Assembly: GCA_963827615.1 (NCBI GenBank)
Contig: CAWHCA010000003.1
Location: 13,367-77,366 of the forward strand
DNA length: 64,000 nt
Direction of reading: 5' to 3'
Origin: an uncultured Gammaproteobacteria bacterium
GTDB taxonomy: Bacteria; Pseudomonadota; Gammaproteobacteria; Steroidobacterales; Steroidobacteraceae
Shown here: piece after piece, positions 2,725 through 7,618 of the stretch
How positions within the stretch are numbered: the first letter of the stretch is position 1
Layout: the number at the start of each line of letters is the position of its first letter
Notes under the pieces: model-generated
What the model was told of the DNA's origin: nothing
The model's input: only the letters and a program-made list of their open reading frames with translations
Database searches by the model: none
Translations under genes and position numbers: made by a program

Positions 2725-4209
2725 TCAGGCCCGGCCGAGCAGGAAATCCATCAGCAGGGGCACCGGGCGACCGGTGCTGCCCTTGTGCGATCCTGTCAGG
2801 TACGCCGTGCCCGCAATGTCCAGGTGGGCCCAGTGCAGGCCTTCGGTGAACTTGGCGAGGAAGCACGCAGCGGTAATGGCGCCGCCGTCGCGACCGCAGG
2901 CATTGGCGAAATCCGCGAAATTGCTCTTCAGCTGCTCGTGGTATTCCTCGGCCATCGGCATGTGCCAGCAGCGGTCCTCCGCGCGCAGGCCGGCCGCGGT
3001 GAGCTCGCCCGCGAGTTCGTCATCGTTGCTCATGACGGCGCTCAGGTGCGCGCCGAGTGCGATCACGCAGGCGCCCGTGAGCGTCGCGATGTCGACGACC
3101 GCCGCCGGCTTGAACCGGCGCGCGTAGGTGAGCGCATCGCACAGGATCAGGCGGCCTTCGGCGTCGGTGTTGATCACCTCGATGGTCTGGCCCGACATGC
3201 TGCGGACGATGTCGCCCGGCTTCGTCGCGCGGCCGCTCGGCATGTTCTCGCAGGATGGAACGATGCCGACGACGTTGAGCTTGAGGCCCATTTCGGCCGC
3301 GGCCTTGATCGCGCCGAAGACGCTGGCAGCGCCCGTCATGTCGAACTTCATCTCGTCCATGCCCGGCGGCTGCTTCAGCGAGATGCCGCCGCTGTCGAAC
3401 GTGACGCCCTTGCCGACGAGCGCGACGGGCGCCTGTCCCGCGCGACCGCCGTCGTAGCGCATGACGATCAGCTTGGCCGGCTCGTCGGTGCCGTTGGTGA
3501 CGGACAGGAACGAACCCATCTTGAGCCGCTTCAGGTCGCGTTCCTCGAGTACCTGCGTCCGCACCGACTTGTACGACCGGGCGAGTTCCTTCGCCTGCTG
3601 CGCGAGGTGGCCCGGCGTGCAGACGTTGGCCGGGAGGTTGGCGAGATCGCGCGTCAGGGCGGAGCCCGCGGCAATCGCCTGGCCATGGTCCAGGCCACGT
3701 TGGGTGGCCGACTTCTGGCTGGCCTCGGAGATGGCGATGCCGAACGATTTCAACGCTGGATCCGCTGGCTTGCGCGCGCTGCGGATGGCGGGGACACGGT
3801 AGAGTGCAGCGCCCACCGCCTCGGCGGCGAGGCGGGCGTCGTAATAGGCGTCGGGCTCAGCGACCGATTCCGCGAGGTAACTTACGGCGTCACGGGCGCC
3901 CGTCCGGGCGATCGCGCCAAGCGCGGCCAGCAGCGCCTTGCGGTACTGCTTGCGGCCAAAGGCACCCTTCTTGCCGAGTCCGACCACCAGGATGCGTTCG
4001 CAGGCGGCGCCTTCCGTATCGATGAGGCGCAGTTCGCCAGTCTTGCCATGCACGTCGCCGCGCTTGATCAACCGGCTCAGGCGTCCTGCCAGGGCGGAGT
4101 CGAGCGCGGCCGCCGCGCCGGTCAGCCCGCCACCGCCTTCGTGCAGGCCGACGATGGCGCAATCGGTCTTCTGGCGTTGCGGGGCGGCGGTGGCGACGAA
4201 TAGACGCAT
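2725..4209 (-). CDS. pepA: Leucyl (cytosol) aminopeptidase, M17 family
   Basis: 494 aa with M17 catalytic-region motifs (VGKGVTFDSGGISLK, NTDAEGRL). It is divergent from lptF, as in other gammaproteobacteria. Confidence 0.95.
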   Translation of the reverse strand: MRLFVATAAPQRQKTDCAIVGLHEGGGGLTGAAAALDSALAGRLSRLIKRGDVHGKTGELRLIDTEGAACERILVVGLGKKGAFGRKQYRKALLAALGAIARTGARDAVSYLAESVAEPDAYYDARLAAEAVGAALYRVPAIRSARKPADPALKSFGIAISEASQKSATQRGLDHGQAIAAGSALTRDLANLPANVCTPGHLAQQAKELARSYKSVRTQVLEERDLKRLKMGSFLSVTNGTDEPAKLIVMRYDGGRAGQAPVALVGKGVTFDSGGISLKQPPGMDEMKFDMTGAASVFGAIKAAAEMGLKLNVVGIVPSCENMPSGRATKPGDIVRSMSGQTIEVINTDAEGRLILCDALTYARRFKPAAVVDIATLTGACVIALGAHLSAVMSNDDELAGELTAAGLRAEDRCWHMPMAEEYHEQLKSNFADFANACGRDGGAITAACFLAKFTEGLHWAHLDIAGTAYLTGSHKGSTGRPVPLLMDFLLGRA

Positions 4210-4324: not shown

Positions 4325-5440
4325 TTGCTCAATCGCCTGGACCGCTACCTGCTGCGCGAAGTGACCGTGACCTTCGTCGCGGTCACCGGCGTGCTGCTGA
4401 TCGTGCTGCTTTCCAACCAGTTTGCGCGGGTGCTCGGGCAGGCGGCAGCCAACGGGTTTCCCGCCAGCATCGTGCTGACGCTGATCGGCCTGACCACGCT
4501 GCAGCAGCTCACCGTGCTCGTGCCGATCGGCCTGTTCCTCGGCATCGTGCTGGCGCTCGGCCGCCTGTACCACGAGAGCGAAATGACGGCGATGACGGCC
4601 TGCGGCGTCGGGCCGTTGCGGATTTACCGGCCGATTGCGCTGCTGGCGGTGGTCGTGGCAGCCCTGCTCGCGGTGCTTTCCTACCGGATCGTGCCGGCTG
4701 CCTGGATCAAATCGAACGATCTTCGGGTCGAGGCGACGCGGGCTGCACAGTTCGGCGCGCTCACGCCGGGACGATTCCGCAGCTTCGCCGGCGGCGATGC
4801 CGTCTTCTATGCCGAGCGCGTCGAGAAGTCGGGTGAGCTGTACGGCGTGTTCGTGCAGCGCAGTGTCGGTGACAAGATCGAGGTTGCAATGGCCGAAAGG
4901 GCAGTGCAACGTGGGGCGGGCCAGCCCGAGCAGATGTTCATCCTGTTCGACGGGCGTCGCTACGAGGGCGTGCCCGGGATGCCGAACTGGCGCATCGTGG
5001 AATTCCGCGAGCACGGGATCCCGGTACGCCTGCCCGAGGCGAAGGCGGGCAAGGACAAGATCGAGGCGAAGAGCACGGCGACGCTGATGGCGTCGGACGA
5101 GCCGAAGGATCGCGCCGAACTGGCGTGGCGCACGGCGGTGCCCGTCATGGCGCTCGTGCTGATGGTGCTCGCGGTGCCGCTCGCCCGCCTGCGCCCGCGC
5201 CAGGGACGGTTCGCCCGGGTTGCCTACGCGGTGCTCGCGTACTTCATGTATTCGAACCTGCTGGCGGCGGTGCGGGTCTGGATCCAGAAGGATGCTGCGG
5301 GCGGACAACTGGGCCTCTGGTGGGTCCATCTCGTGCCGCTCGCGCTCGCCGCATGGCTGCTCTGGAGTGAAATCCATCCCGGCAAACCATGGCGCGTTCG
5401 CTGGCAGCGACGTCCAGCCAGCGCCGCCGCGGCTGGCTGA
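4325..5440 (+). CDS. lptF: LPS export ABC permease LptF
   Basis: 371 aa with N-terminus MLNRLDRYLLREV and a multi-TM YjgP/YjgQ-type profile. Divergent from pepA and followed by lptG. TTG start. Confidence 0.9.
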   Translation: MLNRLDRYLLREVTVTFVAVTGVLLIVLLSNQFARVLGQAAANGFPASIVLTLIGLTTLQQLTVLVPIGLFLGIVLALGRLYHESEMTAMTACGVGPLRIYRPIALLAVVVAALLAVLSYRIVPAAWIKSNDLRVEATRAAQFGALTPGRFRSFAGGDAVFYAERVEKSGELYGVFVQRSVGDKIEVAMAERAVQRGAGQPEQMFILFDGRRYEGVPGMPNWRIVEFREHGIPVRLPEAKAGKDKIEAKSTATLMASDEPKDRAELAWRTAVPVMALVLMVLAVPLARLRPRQGRFARVAYAVLAYFMYSNLLAAVRVWIQKDAAGGQLGLWWVHLVPLALAAWLLWSEIHPGKPWRVRWQRRPASAAAAG

Positions 5441-5454
5441 GGCCGATCGTCGTG

Positions 5455-6528
5455 ATGGGAGTTCTCAGCCGTTACCTGATCCGCACCGTGCTCGGTTATA
5501 CCGCGCTGGTCATGATCGTGCTGCTCGCGCTCGGCGCGCTGTTCATGTTCATCGGCCAGCAGGACGACATCGGCGTCGGCAACTACACGGCTACGCAGGC
5601 ATTGCTGTTCGTCGCCCTGAACCTGCCGAGCTACCTGTTCCAGTTGCTGCCCGTGGCGGCATTGATCGGCTCGCTGCTCGGCCTCGGCAACCTGGCGCGA
5701 GGCAGTGAGCTCATCGTCATGCGTTCCGCGGGCGTGACGACGCTGCGTTTCTGCCTGTGGCTCGGCACGGCCGGCCTGATCCTGTCGTCGCTGATGTTCG
5801 TCATCGGTGAATACGTCGCTCCGCCGCTCGGGCAGTACGCGCGGCAGCTCAAGGTCTTTGCCAAGTTCGACGAGTTCGCCCTCGCAGGCAACCGCGCGAC
5901 GTGGGTGCGTGACGGCGACACCATCATCAGCGTCGACCAGCAGTCTGCCAGCACGCGCTTCGGCGGCATCAAGGTGTTCCAGGTCGATCGCGATCGCCGG
6001 CTCGTGAGCGTCGGCCGCGCCGAGTCGGCGAGCGTCAAGGGCGGCAATGTCTGGCGGCTGGAGAAATACGTCGGCACGTCGTTCGAGCGGGATTCGCTCA
6101 CGGCCGCCGTCGATCGAGCCGGCGAGCGCGACGTGCGCACGTCGTTGTCGTCGGAGTTCCTCGGTCTTGCGATCGCGGAACCCGACACGATGGGATTGCG
6201 TGACCTGCGGGACTACATCGCGCACCTGCAGCGCAACGCACTGCAGTCGGACCGGTTCGAGATGGCTTACTGGTCTCGCCTCGCGCGGTTCGTCGCCGTG
6301 CTGCTGGTGATCATGCTGGCGCTGCCGTTCTGCGTGGGGTCGTTGCGCAATTCGGGGCAGGGCGCGCGCACCGTGGTCGGCGTGCTGATCGGTGCTGGAT
6401 TCGTGCTGCTGAGCCAGACGCTCGAGAGCAGCGGGGAGTTGTTCGGCCTGCCGCCCTGGGTGGTGGGCTGGCTGCCGACGGCGTTGCTCGGTGCGGTGAC
6501 GGGGACGCTGCTCTGGCGTAACCGCTGA
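5455..6528 (+). CDS. lptG: LPS export ABC permease LptG
   Basis: I chose the internal ATG at 5455 (MGVLSRYLIRTVLGY), which lies just after the lptF stop at 5440. The upstream part of the ORF-track ORF overlaps lptF. Confidence 0.9.
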   Translation: MGVLSRYLIRTVLGYTALVMIVLLALGALFMFIGQQDDIGVGNYTATQALLFVALNLPSYLFQLLPVAALIGSLLGLGNLARGSELIVMRSAGVTTLRFCLWLGTAGLILSSLMFVIGEYVAPPLGQYARQLKVFAKFDEFALAGNRATWVRDGDTIISVDQQSASTRFGGIKVFQVDRDRRLVSVGRAESASVKGGNVWRLEKYVGTSFERDSLTAAVDRAGERDVRTSLSSEFLGLAIAEPDTMGLRDLRDYIAHLQRNALQSDRFEMAYWSRLARFVAVLLVIMLALPFCVGSLRNSGQGARTVVGVLIGAGFVLLSQTLESSGELFGLPPWVVGWLPTALLGAVTGTLLWRNR

Positions 6529-6611
6529 GTCGCAGGTTCGATTCCGCAGCTGCCGCTTCGATGCGGTGTGTTCGTGCGACTTTATCGGGCCGACGGATTT
6601 TTCTGGCAAGG

Positions 6612-7112
6612 CGCGGGTTGCAGGGCGCCCGTTCCGGGTCTTCTCCGGGCGAGCGGAAAGGCAGACACGCTCGCCCGGAGAAGACCCCGAACGAACGCCT
6701 GATCGACGGCGCCTGAGCGAATTTTCGGCGGACCGAAAATTCGCACGGCGCAGAGGCGTCGAAGCGGTGCCGGGAATCGATTTCGATGTGCCGATGGCAC
6801 CGCCGATTATCCCAGGTGACAGCATCAACCACGGTGGGGCATCACCCCGGTCAGGCAACGATCGTGAAAGCTGGAATCGGGTCGCGCCGCAACCTTCAGG
6901 TTGTCTCGTCGGATGTCGCGTGTCTCGATGGGTGTGCGCAGGCCTCGAAGCGGAACGCCGTCTTTACTGCGTGAATCTACTTGCGCCGTGCGGGTCGTTC
7001 GGTCCGCCGAACGGCTCGCTCAGGCGCGGCGTGTCGAGCGTTTGATTCGGTTGATTGTCCGAATCGCGTGTCTGCCTTTCCGCGATTCGGACAATCAACC
7101 GAATCGAACGCC
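6612..7112. repeat. Pair of ~130-140 nt imperfect inverted repeats, each holding one long and one short hairpin, enclosing ~230 nt
   Basis: Long hairpin 1 (6631-6692) has a 20+4 bp stem and the loop GAAAGGCAGACA. Long hairpin 2 (7044-7105) has a perfect 25 bp stem and the loop TGTCTGCCTTTC, the exact reverse complement. Short hairpins lie at 6717-6744 (loop CGGA) and 6990-7019 (loop TCCG). The flanks share GCGCCTGAGCGA, TTCGGCGGACCGAA and CGCACGGCGCA in inverted orientation. Confidence 0.85.
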
Positions 7113-7114
7113 TG

Positions 7115-7618
7115 TCACTTCCCCGCCTTCCGCCCCTTCGGCAGCACCACCACCCGCGAATGCGAAAGGGAGTCATGCCAGGTCCGTCGCTCACGATCGA
7201 ACAGCGCCCACACCCAGCCGAGACCCGCCGGCAGCCACGAAAGGACACTCGCGCCCAGCCGCACGGCCACGTCCCGCCACGTCAGCAGGAACCCGTCGTC
7301 GCGCTGCACGCGCAACCGCCAGGTTGCCATGCCCAGCGTCTGCCCTCGCTGGGTCCAGGGCAGGCCGAAGTAGACGACGATGGCGATCGCGAGCGCCGCC
7401 CAGTACGGCAATACGAGCAGCGGGAAGCGATCCCAGGTCACGGCCTCGCCACCCGTGAATGGCAGGAAGCCTGCAGTGACGATCATCAGCACGGCCAGCA
7501 CCAGCAATCCGTCGTAGACCATAGCCGCAAGTCGTCGCAGCAATCCAGCCGGGGGCAGCTCCACCGCAGCAGGAGCAGGGTCGGGGGGATTCACGGAATC
7601 GTCGGCAGGGCTGTTCAC
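7115..7618 (-). CDS. RDD-family membrane protein
   Basis: 167 aa with three hydrophobic segments. It carries the family-typical LRRLAAMVYDGLL and an RDD tripeptide (VQRDDG). Confidence 0.75.
   Translation of the reverse strand: MNSPADDSVNPPDPAPAAVELPPAGLLRRLAAMVYDGLLVLAVLMIVTAGFLPFTGGEAVTWDRFPLLVLPYWAALAIAIVVYFGLPWTQRGQTLGMATWRLRVQRDDGFLLTWRDVAVRLGASVLSWLPAGLGWVWALFDRERRTWHDSLSHSRVVVLPKGRKAGK

Follow-up and report, generated by a model that had tools for sequence, protein, structure and literature searches.

An intergenic hairpin repeat with an invariant loop and exchangeable stems in an uncultured lineage of Steroidobacteraceae

Between lptG and the gene of an RDD-family membrane protein, in the genome of an uncultured gammaproteobacterium of the family Steroidobacteraceae, lie two inverted segments that each fold into a long and a short hairpin. 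Their loops are reverse complements of each other and their long stems differ, yet each stem is internally paired. What kind of element is this, and how does it come to keep its loop and its pairing while changing its stem? An earlier note on this DNA, made from the letters of the window (the whole stretch of 64,000 nucleotides analysed here), read the pattern as compensatory divergence under selection on a fold, and offered three candidates: a MITE-like element with structured ends, a pair of small RNAs, or a REP/BIME-type element with a dedicated binding protein. The flanking genes converge, lptG lying at 5389-6528 on the forward strand (Pfam LptF_LptG, E = 2e-71; also in the open reading frame list) and the RDD gene at 7115-7618 on the reverse strand (Pfam RDD, E = 2.6e-20).

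The inverted segments, their shared blocks and their reverse-complement loops, including the CGGA/TCCG pair of the short hairpins, are all in place as the earlier note had described them. Its two segments, placed together at 6612-7112, are units whose limits are now corrected to 6609-6752 and 6978-7118; in a blastn comparison of 6530-7114 with the genome, only about 6609-6752 and 6978-7113 are covered by repeats. The left unit begins 80 nt downstream of the lptG stop codon. Its long hairpin, module H1 (6609-6714, forward strand; delimited by the inverted repeat, the MFE fold, covariance model CM R1 and the repeat coverage profile), runs from a 5' GGCGC clamp with a stretch X (GGTTGCAGG) through a left arm (6624-6654), the loop GGAAAGGCAGACAC (6655-6668), a right arm (6669-6699) and a linker to a closing GCGCC; in the MFE fold 6609-6614 pairs with 6709-6714. 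Module H2 (6709-6752, forward strand) consists of GCGCCTGAGC, a variable stem-loop (GAATTTTCGG CGGA CCGAAAATTC) and GCACGGCGCA, and its closing stem, GCGCC/GGCGC, carries a conserved bulge and a mismatch. The right unit lies on the reverse strand, with H2 at 6982-7027 (46 nt, from inverted repeats) and H1 at 7023-7118 (arms 7031-7067 and 7082-7118, from the inverted repeat, the fold and CM R1); its H1 loop reads GTGTCTGCCTTTCC on the forward strand (7068-7081). CM R1 scores the left and right H1 at 87.6 and 89.5 bits. An inverted-repeat search places the long arms at 6624-6655/6668-6699 (32 nt, 91% complementary, 12-nt gap) and 7031-7068/7081-7118 (38 nt, 89% complementary, 12-nt gap), and the short hairpins lie at 6717-6744 (loop CGGA) and 6990-7019 (loop TCCG). 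Across the two units an 18-nt block, GCGGAAAGGCAGACACGC, is exactly inverted (6653-6670 against 7066-7083; with up to three mismatches its chance expectation is 0.09 per window), as are TTCGGCGGACCGAA (6724-6737/6998-7011) and CGCACGGCGCA (6742-6752/6982-6992). The long stems agree at about 12 of 25 left-arm positions on our recount, close to the 11 counted before. The RDD stop codon (TCA on the forward strand, 7115-7117) is part of the right unit's 5' end (gTGAcaggcg), so that this unit starts at the stop codon itself.

The further copies that the earlier note had left to a genome-wide covariance-model search exist in number. The genome to which the window belongs (2.58 Mb in 57 contigs, 71% complete) holds 69 copies of the 14-nt loop, 61 exact and eight with one mismatch, against none of the reversed 14-mer, and CM R1 finds 58 complete hairpins; 49 of the hairpins fall into 31 stem clusters, the largest with 12 members. 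A complete unit is about 140 nt long and combines H1, a long hairpin with a stem of about 31 bp and the loop GGAAAGGCAGACAC, with H2, in which GCGCCUGAGC...GCACGGCGCA surround a variable top. H1 has the order GGCGC-X(GGTTGCAGGCG)-left arm-loop-right arm-linker-GCGCC and H2 the order GCGCC-UGAGC-(variable stem-loop)-GCAC-GGCGC-A, with a total length of 43-80 nt, and the middle GCGCC is common to both. H2 is present in about 35 units, the remainder being H1 only.

Pairing within this family is extensive. In the 31-pair H1 stem 95.1% of cells are paired, and both sides change at 29 of the 31 pairs (294 cells), with up to four pair types per position; these figures come from 41 gap-free copies preselected for at least 28 of 31 pairs, and without this selection pairing is clear in 59 of 68 copies. 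The observed value is not attained in any of 500 shuffles, and slid registers give 33-48%. In H2 the frame GCGCCTGAGC...GCACGGCGCA recurs in 35 units around inner stems that are wholly different yet paired, and the closing stem itself has compensatory variants (GCACC/GGTGC and GCGGC/GCCGC). The exact 14-mer loop is carried by 34 of the 35 units that were located through H2 alone, and its invariance is therefore not an artefact of the search. In half-units that lie unpaired upstream of complete ones, the exact loop survives in only five of 25, with a mean of 1.9 mismatches.

The family has a narrow host range. Among 25 sampled species of the genus (G000 included) ten carry the exact loop, seven of them in 31-113 copies and three in one or two. 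The loop is absent from 16 other families of the order, the H1 covariance model gives weak matches only in 100 genomes from 40 genera of the family, and a scan of genomes from about 185,000 species returns almost exclusively a clade of Steroidobacteraceae metagenome-assembled genomes (MAGs), plus scattered single matches. Carriage by phage was considered and rejected: viral contigs hold 64 single matches, an estimated chance level for a 16-mer, with no pairs and no arrays. The nearest lptG and yidC loci all come from MAGs of uncultured Steroidobacteraceae or Gammaproteobacteria from soil, lake sediment and wastewater; a search for orthologues of a Lon flank returned distant taxa only. Variants of the loop occur on the same architecture and H2 frame: GCGAAGAAGACAT in 33 of 61 genomes within the genus (1-10 copies each), some of them without the main type, TGGAATGCCGACAAG in genome G130, and GGAAAGGCAGAAAC, on a shorter stem, in another genus. 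In another genus of the family, two loci (L049 in G110 and L051 in G080) have tandem hairpin repeats with GC-rich stems whose conserved loop, attcgctccccgatactcgctc, is a different one; this sister genus may have an analogous family of its own. All genomes compared are MAGs; however, one of them, G174, is a long-read assembly and the units have unique flanks on both sides, which makes assembly artefacts unlikely. A full-text literature search found nothing relevant on the 14-mer, on REPs with conserved loops or compensatory stems, or on repeats of Steroidobacter. The two hairpin segments are thus copies of a previously undescribed repeat family of one uncultured soil and wastewater lineage.

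The units tend to follow genes closely and in the same sense. For 33 of 54 complete hairpins away from contig ends, a gene in the same sense has its end 33-149 nt ahead of the loop (median 83); with orientation flipped this holds for 14 of 54. By a cruder gene call, 50 of 65 units have an upstream gene in their own orientation and one of 69 falls in a divergent-promoter context, and none of the 69 copies is convincingly intragenic. Since units are sense to the upstream gene, convergent gene pairs carry a forward and a reverse unit, as in the window, and no arrangement is commoner than such convergent pairs, of which there are at least 17, spaced 97-413 nt apart; many units are solitary, and only a few percent of genes carry one. 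The preference for gene ends and convergent gaps is what would be expected of a chromosomal protein-binding or topology site, acting as double-stranded DNA or as a cruciform in the manner of BIMEs, which bind IHF and gyrase, and absorbing supercoiling between convergent transcription units. Long palindromes can extrude cruciforms, and by eye the IHF consensus WATCAANNNNTTR is approached by bases in some right arms (GATCAATCGCTTG in C23:92664 is one case). However, this IHF-like stretch is not conserved and the left window unit lacks it, and neither a cruciform nor a gyrase site needs an asymmetric invariant loop or a fixed orientation. We consider this explanation improbable.

The frequency of convergent pairs could also be read as a sign that 6612-7112 is one MITE-like non-autonomous transposon, its structured ends of about 140 nt serving as terminal inverted repeats; that the fossil left arm of one unit can equal its partner's left arm points the same way. 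The space between the units speaks against it. This spacer (6753-6977, 225 nt) is locus-specific and lies outside the repeat family, being single-copy in the genome (from 6776 to 6976 its only blastn match is itself), and each unit is also found by itself elsewhere. No interior is shared between loci, spacing varies as given above, and the ends evolve independently: at the lptG locus the right loop is degenerate in L013, L017, L019, L023 and L031, and the left unit persists. Between more distant pairs of units there is no autonomous partner, and the genes found there are unrelated (a GST, an amidohydrolase, an IS5-like transposase once, and a RES-Xre pair). The transposon reading is contradicted by the single-copy interior and is left with only the slightest probability. 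The RES-toxin and Xre-antitoxin pair lies between two units at C24:52692-54215 of the genome. Within the spacer a 62-aa ORF has no Pfam match, and no promoter-like site was found. The spacer is conserved blockwise among orthologous loci (GGCGTCGAAGCGG, a hairpin of GATGTGCCGATGGCAC, and CGCAACCCTTGGGTTGTCTCGATGG) and includes the third motif of the earlier note, TCGAAGCGG, which is confirmed at 6759-6767 and 6945-6953 and, inverted, at 6552-6560; it may contain a locus-specific regulatory element or small RNA.

A position just past stop codons, in the sense orientation, invites a further explanation, namely that the host selects a structured RNA. The unit would form the 3' end of the upstream gene's transcript or a small RNA derived from the 3' UTR, its loop and the internal loop of H2 would bind a protein or RNA, and stem swaps would be neutral gene conversion. 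Both hairpins covary, the loop and bulge nucleotides are fixed, loops decay only once the hairpin is broken, and the folds are strong: the two window units reach -97.4 and -84.8 kcal/mol, with z = -8.7 each against shuffles. The position just past stop codons, with the long retention at lptG described below, makes a role of the RNA at the level of the host a serious rival. Against it, the antisense strands fold equally well or better, and wobble pairs are not enriched on the sense strand: transition-type stem mismatches number 32 G.T against 64 A.C, a two-to-one trend towards the antisense strand; sense-strand G.U enrichment was accordingly rejected as an RNA signature. The window units have no sigma-70-like promoter and no U-tract terminator, with no run of T after either H1 or H2, and a scan of Rfam, among the checks the earlier note had named, brings no family to its threshold even at a permissive E-value, the output being microRNA-hairpin noise and dauA, which scores 22.5 bits where 45 would be needed. 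Furthermore, few genes carry a unit, and closely related species do without the family.

Comparison of orthologous loci bears on this directly. In the lptG-RDD gap both units are present in species with 80-96% LptG identity, and in species at 63-78% the site is empty. Retention down to 80% identity fits a structured RNA or any other function that benefits the host. Across species the H2 of the left unit is nearly constant and the H1 stems are very different yet paired. Other lineages have different long hairpins in this convergent gap. At L018 (JADJOO01, about 4390-4500) the right unit keeps its outermost ends, and in place of its interior, which covers most of H2 and H1, stands an unrelated palindrome of about 30 bp (ggtaaattggggacgttcacctatttc...) that is richer in AT; at L032 (about 4050-4170), where a more distant species has an empty site, the gap is filled by a perfect palindrome of 29 bp (ggtgccgggtcgcagtttcgcagttattc and its reverse complement) with a loop of about 30 nt.

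The long-read genome G174 shares most unit loci with the window's genome, with flanks about 90-96% identical. At these loci H1 falls into two groups. In one, arm identity is 90-100% (both window units, the right H1 being 100% identical, C9:61622 and C20:15630, with units on C19 and C7 near that range); in the other it drops to about 70-73% (C9:66933, C9:67317, C20:15365, C25:36667 and C1:91205). H2 is 82-100% identical, and at C9:66933, a locus of the low group, it is 100% identical. At two of these loci, C9:66933 and C20:15365, G174 retains the left arm and loop of the hairpin now active in the window's genome as an unpaired relic with a mutated loop, directly followed by a new series of X, left arm, loop, right arm and linker that abuts the same H2; of the old right arm and linker nothing is left. 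One of the two, a permease locus, shows four states across G000, G001, G004 and G012, in addition to that of G174. In G001 the old left arm is kept (one change in 38) and the right arm and linker are foreign, giving a chimera whose stem is mismatched in places; a third H1 stands in G004 and a fourth in G012, both on an orthologous H2, and in G003 only the base of the left arm remains. Downstream of yidC, genomes whose YidC is 98-99% identical have five H1 stem types on two H2 types, only a right-arm remnant is left in L058, and the site is empty in L062, L065, L068 and L074. The best matches of replaced H1s are non-orthologous copies of the family, at 90-93%. The gene after yidC (C21, about 33900) is an Xre-like antitoxin homologue with an operator-like palindrome, GTTGCAAAAGCAACAAA, conserved across the clade.

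H1 is thus the dynamic module, replaced as a block between close relatives, and H2 stays. The replaced tract runs from the 3' edge of the loop (in G001 from just 5' of the loop) to the first GCGCC of H2, and the incoming piece is derived from a different family member. The former left arm and loop frequently stay behind as an unpaired relic, and repeated rounds build tandem arrays with a period of 57 nt, two to four units long, in which the upstream loops decay. Of 92 distinct hairpins, 25 have a loop-like sequence exactly one 57-nt period upstream, compared with 2% for random windows; since a recognisable loop remnant upstream accompanies no more than about a third of units, a relic need not form. 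Three other readings of these arrays and junctions were tried and dropped. Intermediates of nested insertion, with a displaced right arm downstream of a new H1, were not found, the few matches being the partner unit's arm; a universal ...CAGACAC target upstream of every unit is rejected by its presence at only about one unit in three; and a CRISPR-like reading fails since the 'spacers' are homologous left arms in arrays of so few units. At C1:105010-105474, where G174 has three normal units (C12:64677-65001), H1-like arms of 38 nt (gctcgtcgctggaggatccggctgtcttgccgcgctccg and its complement) enclose about 170 nt of other sequence instead of the 14-nt loop.

The claim that compensatory divergence reveals selection on a fold therefore stands only in part. 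The stems do covary massively around fixed loops. However, the two window copies belong to different stem sub-families of a family that has about 60-110 copies per genome, and have not diverged step by step from each other, and much of the covariation is block exchange among copies rather than compensatory substitution in place. Because H1 is exchanged blockwise, perfect pairing could arise by copying and quasipalindrome correction and not only by selection on the fold. Presence and absence, together with wholesale exchange of H1 at near-identical loci, would also be unusual for an RNA that the host needs. Weighing these points with those above, we regard the structured RNA as possible and as a reading to be taken seriously, though an unlikely one.

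Which of the known repeat systems does the family resemble? The third candidate of the earlier note, a REP/BIME-type element, comes closest of the three. Like REPs, BIMEs and REPINs (the 'REPtron'), these are high-copy, lineage-specific extragenic palindromes that mostly follow genes, are often paired in inverted orientation where genes converge, are built as modular mosaics and, if transcribed, should affect the 3' ends of mRNAs. In contrast, a REP is 20-40 nt long with a conserved stem and a 5' GT(A/G)G tetranucleotide, whereas the present repeat has a variable stem of about 31 bp, an invariant 14-nt loop and no GTAG at its foot. A REPtron has a cognate RAYT (Y1 HUH, PF01797); copy number of the present repeat is independent of a Y1_Tnp gene. 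No PF01797 match was found in the repeat-rich genomes G000, G001, G004 and G012 (the last 99% complete, with 113 copies), and many repeat-free genomes have one, so that the gene does not track the repeat. A second, classical-looking REP (CCTCTCCC..GGGAGAGG..GGGTGAGGG) coexists in genomes of the genus and may be the partner of their Y1_Tnp/RAYT genes. It adjoins some H1 units in the form CCTCTCCC-N4-8-GGGAGAGGTCG...GCGGGTGAGGG, in the window's genome at C48 (about 23550) and C36 (about 33990), and downstream of lptG or yidC at L026, L061, L063 and L077.

Other families share single traits. The BOX elements of Streptococcus pneumoniae (boxA-boxB(n)-boxC) are likewise modular and non-coding, with a variable tandem internal module and strong predicted secondary structure, but there is no sequence relation, and the tandem module here is a half-hairpin (left arm and loop) whose copies differ and decay with distance from H2. 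Correia (CREE/NEMIS), ERIC/IRU and YPAL elements are intergenic hairpin repeats of 100-170 nt, co-transcribed with their neighbours, and their long stems are RNase III targets in Neisseria; they are bounded by defined terminal inverted repeats, duplicate their target (TA in the case of Correia) and have an interior in common, none of which is seen here. A target-site duplication of the kind expected of a MITE was not recognisable in the comparison of filled and empty yidC sites, where the flanks are too diverged. We know of no description of a conserved loop on variable stems for Correia, ERIC/IRU or YPAL, and our literature search found none. H2 recalls integron attC sites in its conserved, imperfect basal stem with unpaired bases, its variable terminal structure (the 43-80 nt of H2) and the priority of structure over sequence, and new material is likewise added beside a fixed site with the older pushed away. 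However, RYYYAAC/GTTRRRY core sites are lacking, the units are dispersed rather than arrayed beside an intI, and the integrase is absent from most repeat-rich genomes: within the genus TIGR02249 scores above cut-off only in G006, G008, G018, G019 and G022, with no correlation with the repeat.

The ends of IS200/IS605 elements and the origins of HUH nucleases offer a functional parallel in one respect, an invariant single-stranded site on a hairpin with a variable stem and junctions at a fixed position beside it; the ...CAGACAC that often precedes new left ends stands as a target would. However, no TnpA/Y1 gene correlates with the repeat, and no nested insertions with a displaced right arm were found. 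Template-switch correction of quasipalindromes, known from E. coli, explains one-step repair of an arm mismatch or of a chimera like that in G001 without selection, but it is a mechanism rather than an element family, and leaves the invariant loop and the import of foreign arms unexplained. At both window units the hairpin lacks the U-tract of an intrinsic terminator. The family, then, works most like REP/BIME mosaics with BOX-like modular tandems, and by the tests applied it is not a REP, a MITE, an attC site, a terminator or a member of an Rfam family.

With moderate confidence we take the two segments of the lptG-RDD gap to be separate copies of a lineage-restricted, non-coding, modular DNA repeat, REP/BIME-like and independent of RAYT, in which the loop is a cis-acting site. 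As loops are exact only while they belong to a complete hairpin and are lost once the partner arm is gone, the invariant loop, presented single-stranded on a stem of about 31 bp, would be the site required for propagation, and complementarity of the arms would be retained since the hairpin is needed to present it. Pairing could be restored rapidly, either when one arm is copied from the other (quasipalindrome template switching) or when both arms are imported as a pair. As for the machinery, it might be a nuclease or recombinase specific for hairpins or single-stranded DNA, neither a RAYT nor an integron integrase, or the process might be enzyme-free, by short-homology copy-choice at the identical loop region of about 27 nt and at the GCGC junctions. 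When transcribed as part of 3' UTRs the 31-bp stems would be RNase III substrates or barriers to exonucleases, like those of REP and Correia elements, probably as a side effect. Several observations count against this explanation. First, no trans-acting enzyme that tracks the repeat was found, RAYT and integron integrase having been checked. Second, no clean pair of filled and empty sites with a target-site duplication was found, so that transposition in the strict sense is at most a possibility. Third, the persistence of both lptG-locus units described above would also fit a function that benefits the host. Fourth, as noted, a relic is left at a minority of units.

A bolder version of the propagating repeat is that H1 represents a new kind of mobile DNA, a hairpin cassette. 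A putative enzyme, neither a RAYT transposase nor an integrase of integrons, would recognise the 14-nt loop on extruded or single-stranded DNA, cut at its 3' edge and replace everything up to an H2 'anchor' with a copy from another locus. We put this forward as speculation that is more likely wrong than right by a wide measure. Were it true, each event would leave the previous left arm and loop in place, the 57-nt arrays would record past occupants in polar, temporal order, and the species-specific loops (GGAAAGGCAGACAC, GCGAAGAAGACAT and TGGAATGCCGACAAG) would reflect co-evolution with the enzyme.

Intergenic palindromes of bacteria such as REP, BIME, ERIC, Correia and BOX are usually recognised by conserved stems and, where the mechanism is known, are tied to a RAYT transposase. 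The present family inverts this pattern, with an invariant loop, free stems and no tie to RAYT. On a practical level, the units break short-read assemblies of the lineage, as many copies lie at contig ends, and they could serve as strain markers. A more general caution is that 'compensatory' covariation among repeat copies can stem from block copying and arm-to-arm correction, and is on its own no proof of a functional RNA. At orthologous MAG loci turnover is ordered, with one hairpin module swapped beside a stable second and relics accumulating on one side, and the family is thus a concrete, datable system for the spread of repeats and the persistence of perfect palindromes.
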